From: Mobula hypostoma
Taxonomy: Eukaryota
NCBI RefSeq assembly: GCF_963921235.1
Contig: NC_086097.1
Location: 44,766,001-44,830,000 of the forward strand
Length of the DNA: 64,000 nt
Reading direction: 5' to 3'
Below are positions 22,777-24,414 of this stretch, piece after piece (positions within the stretch are counted from its first letter, which is position 1; each line of letters opens with the position of its first letter). A model generated the notes under the pieces. The model searched no databases, was not told the origin of the DNA, and saw only the letters and a program-made list of their open reading frames with translations. A program made the translations under genes and the position numbers.

Positions 22777-24414
22777 TAGTTGAAATCAGAAGTTTACATA
22801 CACCTTAGCCAAATACATTTAAACTCAGTTTTTCACAATTCCTGACATTTAATCCTAGAGAACATTCCCTGTCTTAAGTCAGTTAGGATCACTACTTTAT
22901 TTTAAGAATGTGAAATGTCAGAATAATAGTAGAGAGAATGATTTATTTCAGCTTCCATTTCTTTCATCACTTTCCCAGTGGGTCAGAAGTTTACATACAC
23001 TTTGTTAGTATTTGGTAGCATTGCCTTTAAATTGTTTAACTTGGGTCAAACGTTTTGGGTAGCTTTCCACAGGCTTCTCACAGTAAGTTGCTGGAATTTT
23101 GTTCCATTCCTCCAGACAGAACTGGTGTAACTGAGTCAGGTTTGTAAGCCTCCTTGCTCGCACACGCTTTTTCAGTTCTGCTCACAAATTTTCTCTCGGA
23201 CTGAGGTCAGAAAATGATGTCAAGTCTGGTTCATCCTTGGGAGCAATTTCCAAATGCCTGAAGGTACCACGTTCATCTGTACAAACAATAGTACGCAAGT
23301 ATAAACACCATGGGACCGCGCAGCCGTCATACTGCTCAGGAAGGAGACACATTCTGTCTCCTAGAGATGAACGTACTTTGGCATGAAAAGTGCAAATCAA
23401 TCCCAGAACAACAGCAAAGGACCTTGTGAAGATGCTGGAGGAAACAGGTAGACAAGTATCTATATCCACAGTTAAACGAGTCCTATATCGACATAACCTG
23501 AAAGGCTGTTCAGCAAGGAAGAAGCCACTGCTCCAAAACCACCATAAAAAAGCCAGACTACAGTTTGCAAGTGCACATGGGGACAAAGATCTTATTTTTT
23601 GGAGAAACGTCCTCTGGTCTGATGAAACAAAAATTGAACTGTTTGGCCATAATGACCATCGTTGTGTTTGGAGAAAAAGGGTGAGGCTTGCAAGCCGAAT
23701 AACACCATCCCAACTGTGAAGCATGGGGGTGGCAGCATCATGTTGTGGGGGTGCTTTGCTGCAGGAGGGACTGGTGCACTTCTCAAAATAGATGGCATCA
23801 TGAGGAAGGAAAATTATGTGGATATATTGAAGCAACATCTCAAGACATCAGCCAGGAAGTTAAAGCTCGGTCGCAAATGGGTCTTTCAAATGGAGAATGA
23901 CCCCAAGCATACCTCCAAAGTTGTGGTAAAATTGCTTAAGGACAACAAAGTCAAGGTATTGGAGTGGCCATCACAAGGCCCTGACCTCAATGCGATAGAA
24001 AATTTGTGGGCAGAACGGAAAAAGATTGTGCAAGCAAGAAGTCTTACAAACCTGACTCAGTTACACCAGTTCTTTTGGGAGGAATGGAACAAAATTCCAG
24101 CAACTTACTGTGAGAAGCCTGTGGAAGGCCACCCAAAATGTTTGACCCAAGTTAAACAATTTAAAGGCAATGCTACCAAATACTAACAAAGTGTATTTAA
24201 ACTTCTGACCCACTGGGAAAGTGGTGAAAGAAATAAAAGCTGAAATAAATCATTCTCTCCACTATTATTCTGACATTTCACATTCTTAAAATAAAGTAGT
24301 GATCCTAACTGACCTAAGACAGGGAATGTTCTCTAGGATTAAATGTCAGGAATTGTGAAAAACGGAGTTTGAATGTATTTGGCCAAGGTGTATGTAAACT
24401 TCTGACTTCAACTG
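22777..24414 (+). mobile_element. Sleeping Beauty/Tss1-subfamily Tc1 transposon, defective and rearranged
   Basis: TA flanks; terminus CAGTTGAAGTCAGAAGTTTACATACAC with IR/DR structure; transposase KSGSSLGAISK...WSDETKIELFG...[13 protein letters not shown] C-terminus (QFKGNATKY); stop at 23384, frameshift near 23675, no N-terminus. Confidence 0.95.

Follow-up and report, generated by a model that had tools for sequence, protein, structure and literature searches.

A Sleeping Beauty-type transposon with two right ends, a probable member of an amplified non-autonomous lineage in an apparently cartilaginous fish

Introduction

Sleeping Beauty (SB) constructs with two right ends transpose poorly, and right/right is regarded as a poor combination of ends. 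SB serves as a gene-delivery vector, the end design of which assumes superiority of the left end, where the half-DR lies. In the accessible parts of the papers cited here and below, the half-DR is described as an enhancer in the left IR that is not essential (PMC7827188, PMC5224488, PMC8151067), a solo right IR gave no transposition and a solo left IR 0.56% (PMC3952818), and SB, like Mos1, is said to work best with two identical preferred ends, with reference to Izsvak 2002 (PMC4505599). IR/DR elements have also been reported not to form MITEs easily (PMC5224488).

Rearranged ends have been described in mariners. In Rpmar49 and Rpmar17 of Rhodnius prolixus, the 3' part replaces the 5' part; Rpmar49 measures 221 bp and is present in 13 copies, and the Rpmar lineages were amplified from one founder (Filee et al. 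2015, PMC4678618). Dromar7, -11, -28, and -36 of Drosophila are rearranged mariner MITEs (Wallau et al. 2014, PMC4161770). For the SB branch, the survey of Jia et al. (2022, PMC9777934) gives TIRs of 44 to 415 bp with a 3' TIR that overlaps the ORF; its tables may include comparable forms on which the text does not comment, and Chondrichthyes are absent from the list of SB-branch elements in its accessible part. In the literature that we searched, outside subscription journals and Repbase, no natural SB-type lineage with two right ends is described, and the accessible parts of PMC2198921, PMC12361510, and PMC3828361 contain no right/right form.

Here, we describe an SB-branch element in a 64-kb stretch of DNA (the window) from an apparently cartilaginous fish. 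It shares with the SB/salmonid-type Tc1/DD34E elements (Jia et al. 2022, PMC9777934) a 228-bp IR/DR, two DRs per end, the TA target, and a length of about 1.64 kb, but unlike them it has no left IR, no half-DR, and no start codon, and its TIRs are 434 bp long and hold 67 codons of the transposase.

Results

The element, an SB-clade Tc1 fossil, occupies 22777-24414 of the window (1638 bp) and is flanked on each side by the TA target duplication (22775-22776 and 24415-24416). Its termini are of the CAGT type except for a C-to-T change at the left terminal position, and no other copy was found within the 64-kb window. The native right end, on the plus strand, consists of 434 bp (23981-24414) that comprise the last transposase codons and the right IR/DR (24187-24414), and self-alignment identifies it as the template of the left arm. 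The alignment of 22777-23210 with the reverse complement of this segment has no gaps and shows 27 mismatches over 434 positions (93.8% identity, K2P 0.065; 17 transitions and 10 transversions), 11 of them in the 228 bp of the IR part and 16 in the 206 bp of the coding part, and the similarity ends abruptly at 23210. The 434-bp inverted copy noticed in an earlier, sequence-only reading of this DNA was therefore delimited exactly.

On the minus strand, the left arm contains an inverted copy of the right IR/DR that acts as the left end (22777-23004), as recognized by IR alignment and a DR-core scan, with an outer DR at about 22777-22808 and an inner DR at about 22973-23004 and without a half-DR. 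The remainder of the arm (23005-23210, also minus strand) holds antisense transposase codons 273/274 to 340 and the stop codon. These amount to 67 whole codons, in agreement with the previous estimate that the IR/DR and the last 68 or so codons had been copied, and 55 of the 67 residues are identical to the transposase of the vector pT2/Gene-Trap (P0184). With IRs of about 230 bp and an outer and an inner DR at each end, the element belongs to the IR/DR subgroup, and its 1638 bp and 321 retained codons out of 340 set it apart from MITEs as usually defined, which are short, internally deleted, and poor in coding sequence. More than half of the arm mismatches (14 of 27, at 23114-23201) fall within the 97 bp of the arm that are farthest from the element end, which suggests that the outer part was more strongly homogenised.

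To assign the ends, we used L001, a salmonid-type native element with a left end that came from a metagenome scan and is the sole native left reference; its coding sequence is 92.7% identical to that of the window element over 751 nt. The left IR of the window element matches its own right IR at 217 of 228 positions and the native left IR of L001 at 160 of 220 aligned columns. The left end thus does not fit a native left IR better, and the proposal that both ends are SB right IRs, the native left IR having been replaced, withstood this alignment. The DR-core scan detected the outer and inner DRs of L001 and a third site at position 168 with 2 mismatches, which we take for the half-DR, whereas each arm in the window has two sites only. 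The sequence behind the outer DR of both window ends follows one pT/neo primer class, and that of the L001 left end follows the other (PMC5224488, accessible part). The distinct left IR, the half-DR enhancer, and the 5'UTR of an autonomous SB-type element are consequently missing, apart from 15 nt of the UTR. A search for additional native left ends returned 39 viral loci with the UTR word, all attributable to chance and none similar to the element, and further searches for native left ends gave no result. L001 has peculiarities of its own, namely a small insertion directly behind the outer DR core of its left end (L001 20-45) and a 12-nt deletion in codons 11-14.

The junction between the left arm and the transposase keeps a readable trace of the repair event. 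Positions 23208-23222, on the plus strand, are identical to positions 275-289 of L001, located in the 5'UTR behind the left inner DR, a match expected by chance with a probability of about 4e-5. The 10 nt previously interpreted as filler are thus not filler and belong to a 15-nt exact relic of the native 5'UTR. The first 3 nt of this relic are common to the arm and its last 2 nt are common to the resuming coding sequence, so that microhomologies are present at both of the joins, one between the arm and the UTR and the other between the UTR and codon 19/20. The latter join removes 171 nt, or 159 in L001, where 12 nt of this stretch are missing. Since neither internal join falls at a TA or at an element end, they are best attributed to DNA repair and not to the transposase, and we infer from the sequence that the repair was guided by microhomology. 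Three other origins were considered and rejected: a filler templated inside the transposase, for which the element offers a 9/10 match, far poorer than the 15/15 match to the UTR; decayed codons 12-16, ruled out by the same 15/15 match; and SB autointegration, ruled out by joins that lack TA. The distance from the inner DR to the resumption of coding is 241 nt in both the native (L001 218-459) and the rearranged form (22980-23221), a comparison with one reference; this equality may be a coincidence (about 1 in 100) or reflect selection for the native length.

The transposase sequence (23221-24186, plus strand) starts as abruptly as the sequence-only reading had it, with coding resuming at K20 and 19 codons missing. 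The remnant is identical to P0184 at 279 of 320 residues and to more distant fish relatives (Prochilodus and Coilia) at 244 to 248 of 320. It matches the PAI and catalytic domains of SB in PDB, as well as the Pfam profiles HTH_SB (from profile position 20), HTH_Tnp_Tc3_2, and DDE_3. Closest similarity and domain content place it in the SB branch of Tc1/DD34E, a placement made by pairwise comparison. The transposase is dead: besides the absence of codons 1-19, it has a stop at 23384-23386 (codon 74) and a 1-nt frameshift near 23670-23679, so that no intact 340-codon ORF is present, and of the catalytic triad, D153 and E279 are kept with correct spacing and D244 is read as E (23893-23895). The latter change is private to the window copy, since the majority letter at 23895 in X21, one of the public runs compared below, differs from that of the window. 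The 34 full-length matches and the 57 cluster members listed did not include an intact host transposase.

An old LINE fragment (22610-22773; nhmmer E value of 4e-9 with a profile of six LINE copies from the window) extends up to the insertion site. The continuity of the LINE across the empty site was not significant (equalled in 232 of 3000 shuffles with 45 nt, 1129 of 3000 with 60 nt, and 920 of 2000 unanchored) and was not used. On the minus strand, a late exon of an Ena/VASP-family gene is located at 19926-19988 (match to the VASP tetramerisation helix 1use, E value of 0.0016), and further exon-like pieces of such a gene are recognizable near 19148, near 45611, and at 49070-49468 (polyproline and the following region). 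Because exon-like pieces occur on both sides, the element lies in an intron, antisense to this gene, which we take to be EVL. Elsewhere in the window, 25731-26366 and 27016-27653 form a 638-bp inverted pair with 95% identity inside a cluster of related repeat fragments (25729-29060), and three short self-complementary elements (13579-13683, 90%; 44176-44319, 81%; 61793-61976, 81%) are possibly MITEs. Among the proteins compared, the trout RIMS-binding protein 2 model P0121 contains a segment of 22 residues (840-861) that corresponds to the 3' coding region of an SB-type element read in antisense, as either an exonised fragment or an annotation error.

Information on other copies came from the contigs of 4 of 24 matching public runs (X21, X22, X8, and X3), which we compared over 22400-23975. 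X21, a single run from a single sample, contains a fraction of 0.60 of the words and has coverage in all 7 flank bins; of the 40 difference sites listed (of 145), 18 have the window letter in X21 and another letter in the other three runs. Based on these letters and on the flank coverage, we consider that X21 represents the subfamily of the window copy; the sample may be from a related species. In X22, X8, and X3, the coding sequence has its native 5' start, visible as a loose end at 23221, and these runs are our controls for the native architecture. In terms of contig depth, which is not copy number and cannot place copies, the junction bin reached 0.95 of the mean interior in X21 versus 0.46, 0.42, and 0.41 in X22, X8, and X3, the depth at 23201 relative to that at 23182 was 0.33 versus 0.021, 0.017, and 0.014, and the arm-to-interior ratio was 2.96 versus 0.84, 0.86, and 0.59. 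A pure right/right family predicts a ratio of 2, and the excess means that shorter derivatives or solo right ends probably exist as well.

At 23201, 99% of the X21 depth carries a letter other than that of the window, and the "from_end" value, 11 in all three controls, is 48 in X21. Since 11 is the distance to the end of the arm, the value of 48 is best read as a contig of another copy, which appears to cross the junction in X21. The X21 depth at this position (25,785) is 1000 to 2700 times that of the two least-covered flank bins and falls within the range seen at interior private-change sites (8,290 to 100,444, median 38,688). At the edge of the element, between the first arm bin and the flank bin, the X21 depth drops approximately 8000-fold, which indicates that the other copies do not have this flank in common. 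The contig depth of X21 therefore supports, indirectly, that the junction is common and located in other flanks, at high copy number elsewhere, and a crude two-component reading of the X21 junction bin puts the share of the right/right form in the family at about 0.9. At the inner end of the inner DR, X21 and the window also have three consecutive bases (23002-23004 and 24187-24189) that differ from those of the other three runs and of the salmonid type, a candidate alteration of transposase binding.

Direct searches for the junction were negative within their respective scopes. None of the 8 X21 pieces listed spans it, and the absence of the native 5' loose end among the 6 X21 rows listed is uninformative and was not used as evidence. 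A gapped pattern scan of the window found no further copy, and neither did scans of metagenome, viral, and prokaryote contigs, collections that are not expected to include the host. The readable part of the PMC9777934 supplement has no junction versus 80 places with the native start (19 shown). At the protein level, the junction peptide was absent from the 120 matches listed out of 198, and the junction words occurred in 0 of 207 proteins; one longer match among 65 candidates covered the antisense arm only.

Discussion

We propose, with a probability of roughly 0.78, that the window holds a copy of a non-autonomous, full-length right/right lineage of SB-clade Tc1 elements that was amplified by transposase supplied in trans. 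The founder would have lost about 259 bases on the left and a further 171 (the rest of the 5'UTR, the ATG, and codons 1-19) and would have acquired its last 434 bases a second time, in inverted orientation. The likeliest route would be repair synthesis with two template switches, from the coding sequence to the 5'UTR via 2 nt and from the 5'UTR to the right end via 3 nt; a deletion followed by recombination between two head-to-head neighbours could have given the same product. Such a founder would have been deprived of the promoter region, the start codon, the first HTH helix, and the half-DR, and without the first three of these it could not have made transposase and would have depended on the enzyme in trans. 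With four transposase sites (the DRs), TA-ready ends, and the native length, it would have remained a usable substrate, cut and pasted by the transposase of intact relatives until the derivative made up much of the family, after which decay would have brought the arms to their present divergence of 6.5%. Right/right elements appear to have spread widely in the host, even though laboratory work places the right end below the left. SB is less efficient with internally deleted substrates than with those of full length (PMC5224488, accessible part), which fits the success of a derivative of native length.

The sequence-only reading had seen in the TA flanks a sign of mobilisation in trans. The mobilisation itself gains support from the X21 contig depth, but the flanks do not show it, because a rearrangement in place would have kept the TAs too. 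In such a scenario, a normal left/right insertion had its left part overwritten later by its own right end, through TIR extension or conversion, and the product never or rarely moved. An extension of TIRs by recruitment of internal sequence has been described for Galileo (PMC3573991), and three changes common to both arms and absent from the family majority would be accounted for: at 22860/24331, 23072/24119, and 23147/24044, the arms share a letter from which more than 99.8% of the X21 depth differs. Given that 9 arm sites are listed where X21 differs from the left arm, the Poisson probability of coincidence is 0.002 to 0.009, and the shared changes are likely the result of arm-to-arm conversion. 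They do not discriminate, however, since conversion between the arms of a copy that was already right/right predicts them just as duplication in place does. We consider a rearrangement in place unlikely, as the X21 depth at the junction is close to that of the interior, exceeds that of the least-covered flank bins by three orders of magnitude, and carries a letter foreign to the window copy.

About equally unlikely, in our opinion, is that the active SB-type element of the host was already right-like at both ends, in which case the founder merely extended a symmetric TIR and suffered no handicap. The host lineage yielded no native left end, the reference L001 being of salmonid type, and published SB TIRs reach 415 bp with the 3' TIR overlapping the ORF (PMC9777934). 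Yet the 15-mer identical to the salmonid-type 5'UTR and the 92.7% identity of the interior to L001 argue for a parent near the canonical element.

We give slightly less credit to a right/right form that became multicopy passively, in tandem arrays or larger duplications, and not by the action of transposase on two right ends. Contig depth cannot place copies, and the arm depth of 2.96 instead of 2 indicates that other structures exist; nevertheless, the depth collapses exactly at the end of the element, and the window copy, which has two complete IR/DRs, is a solitary element bounded by TA dinucleotides. Finally, although long inverted repeats can be assembled wrongly, an assembly artefact is very improbable, given that the arms differ at 27 sites, that the junction holds native UTR sequence absent elsewhere in the element, and that short-read contigs support it.

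A bolder idea, which we put forward as tentative and somewhat doubtful, is that in this host the right/right derivative, devoid of a promoter, transposed more successfully than the canonical left/right element and came to predominate in the family. If true, nature would offer an exception to the ranking of SB ends in the laboratory, and the 434-bp perfect arms, the exact native spacing, or the changed inner DR would offset the missing half-DR. Owing to the arms, read-through transcripts would also form long hairpins containing transposase sequence, which could have silenced the family. A natural lineage with two right ends offers a substrate with which to test whether the ranking of the ends is valid in the germ line and whether the arms or the inner DR can rescue the right/right combination.

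The closest parallels are found outside the SB branch, and the present element would extend end-replacement lineages, described for insect mariners in the papers that we found, to IR/DR elements. Like Rpmar49 and Rpmar17 (PMC4678618), it is a non-autonomous member of the Tc1/mariner superfamily with long TIRs that have transposase homology, its 5' part being replaced by the inverted 3' part; the other hallmark of Rpmar49, many independent insertions with one breakpoint, has strong but indirect support here from the X21 contig depth. The Rpmar elements are reduced in length relative to their parents and, as mariners, have TIRs that are short and simple, whereas the window element is of the IR/DR type, with native ends that are unequal (73% alike), and has kept its full length and a UTR relic at the junction. 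As in the Drosophila Dromar elements (PMC4161770), replacement of one end generates long TIRs and founds successful non-autonomous sublineages, but these elements are short and the polarity is opposite in all seven cases, the 3' part being replaced by the 5' part. Galileo likewise acquires internal sequence in its TIRs by recombination, but it belongs to the P superfamily and shows many copy-specific extensions, not one amplified junction (Marzo et al. 2013, PMC3573991). Thus, the element is dead and its type of rearrangement is already known from other transposons, and the SB-type right/right form is a new variant.
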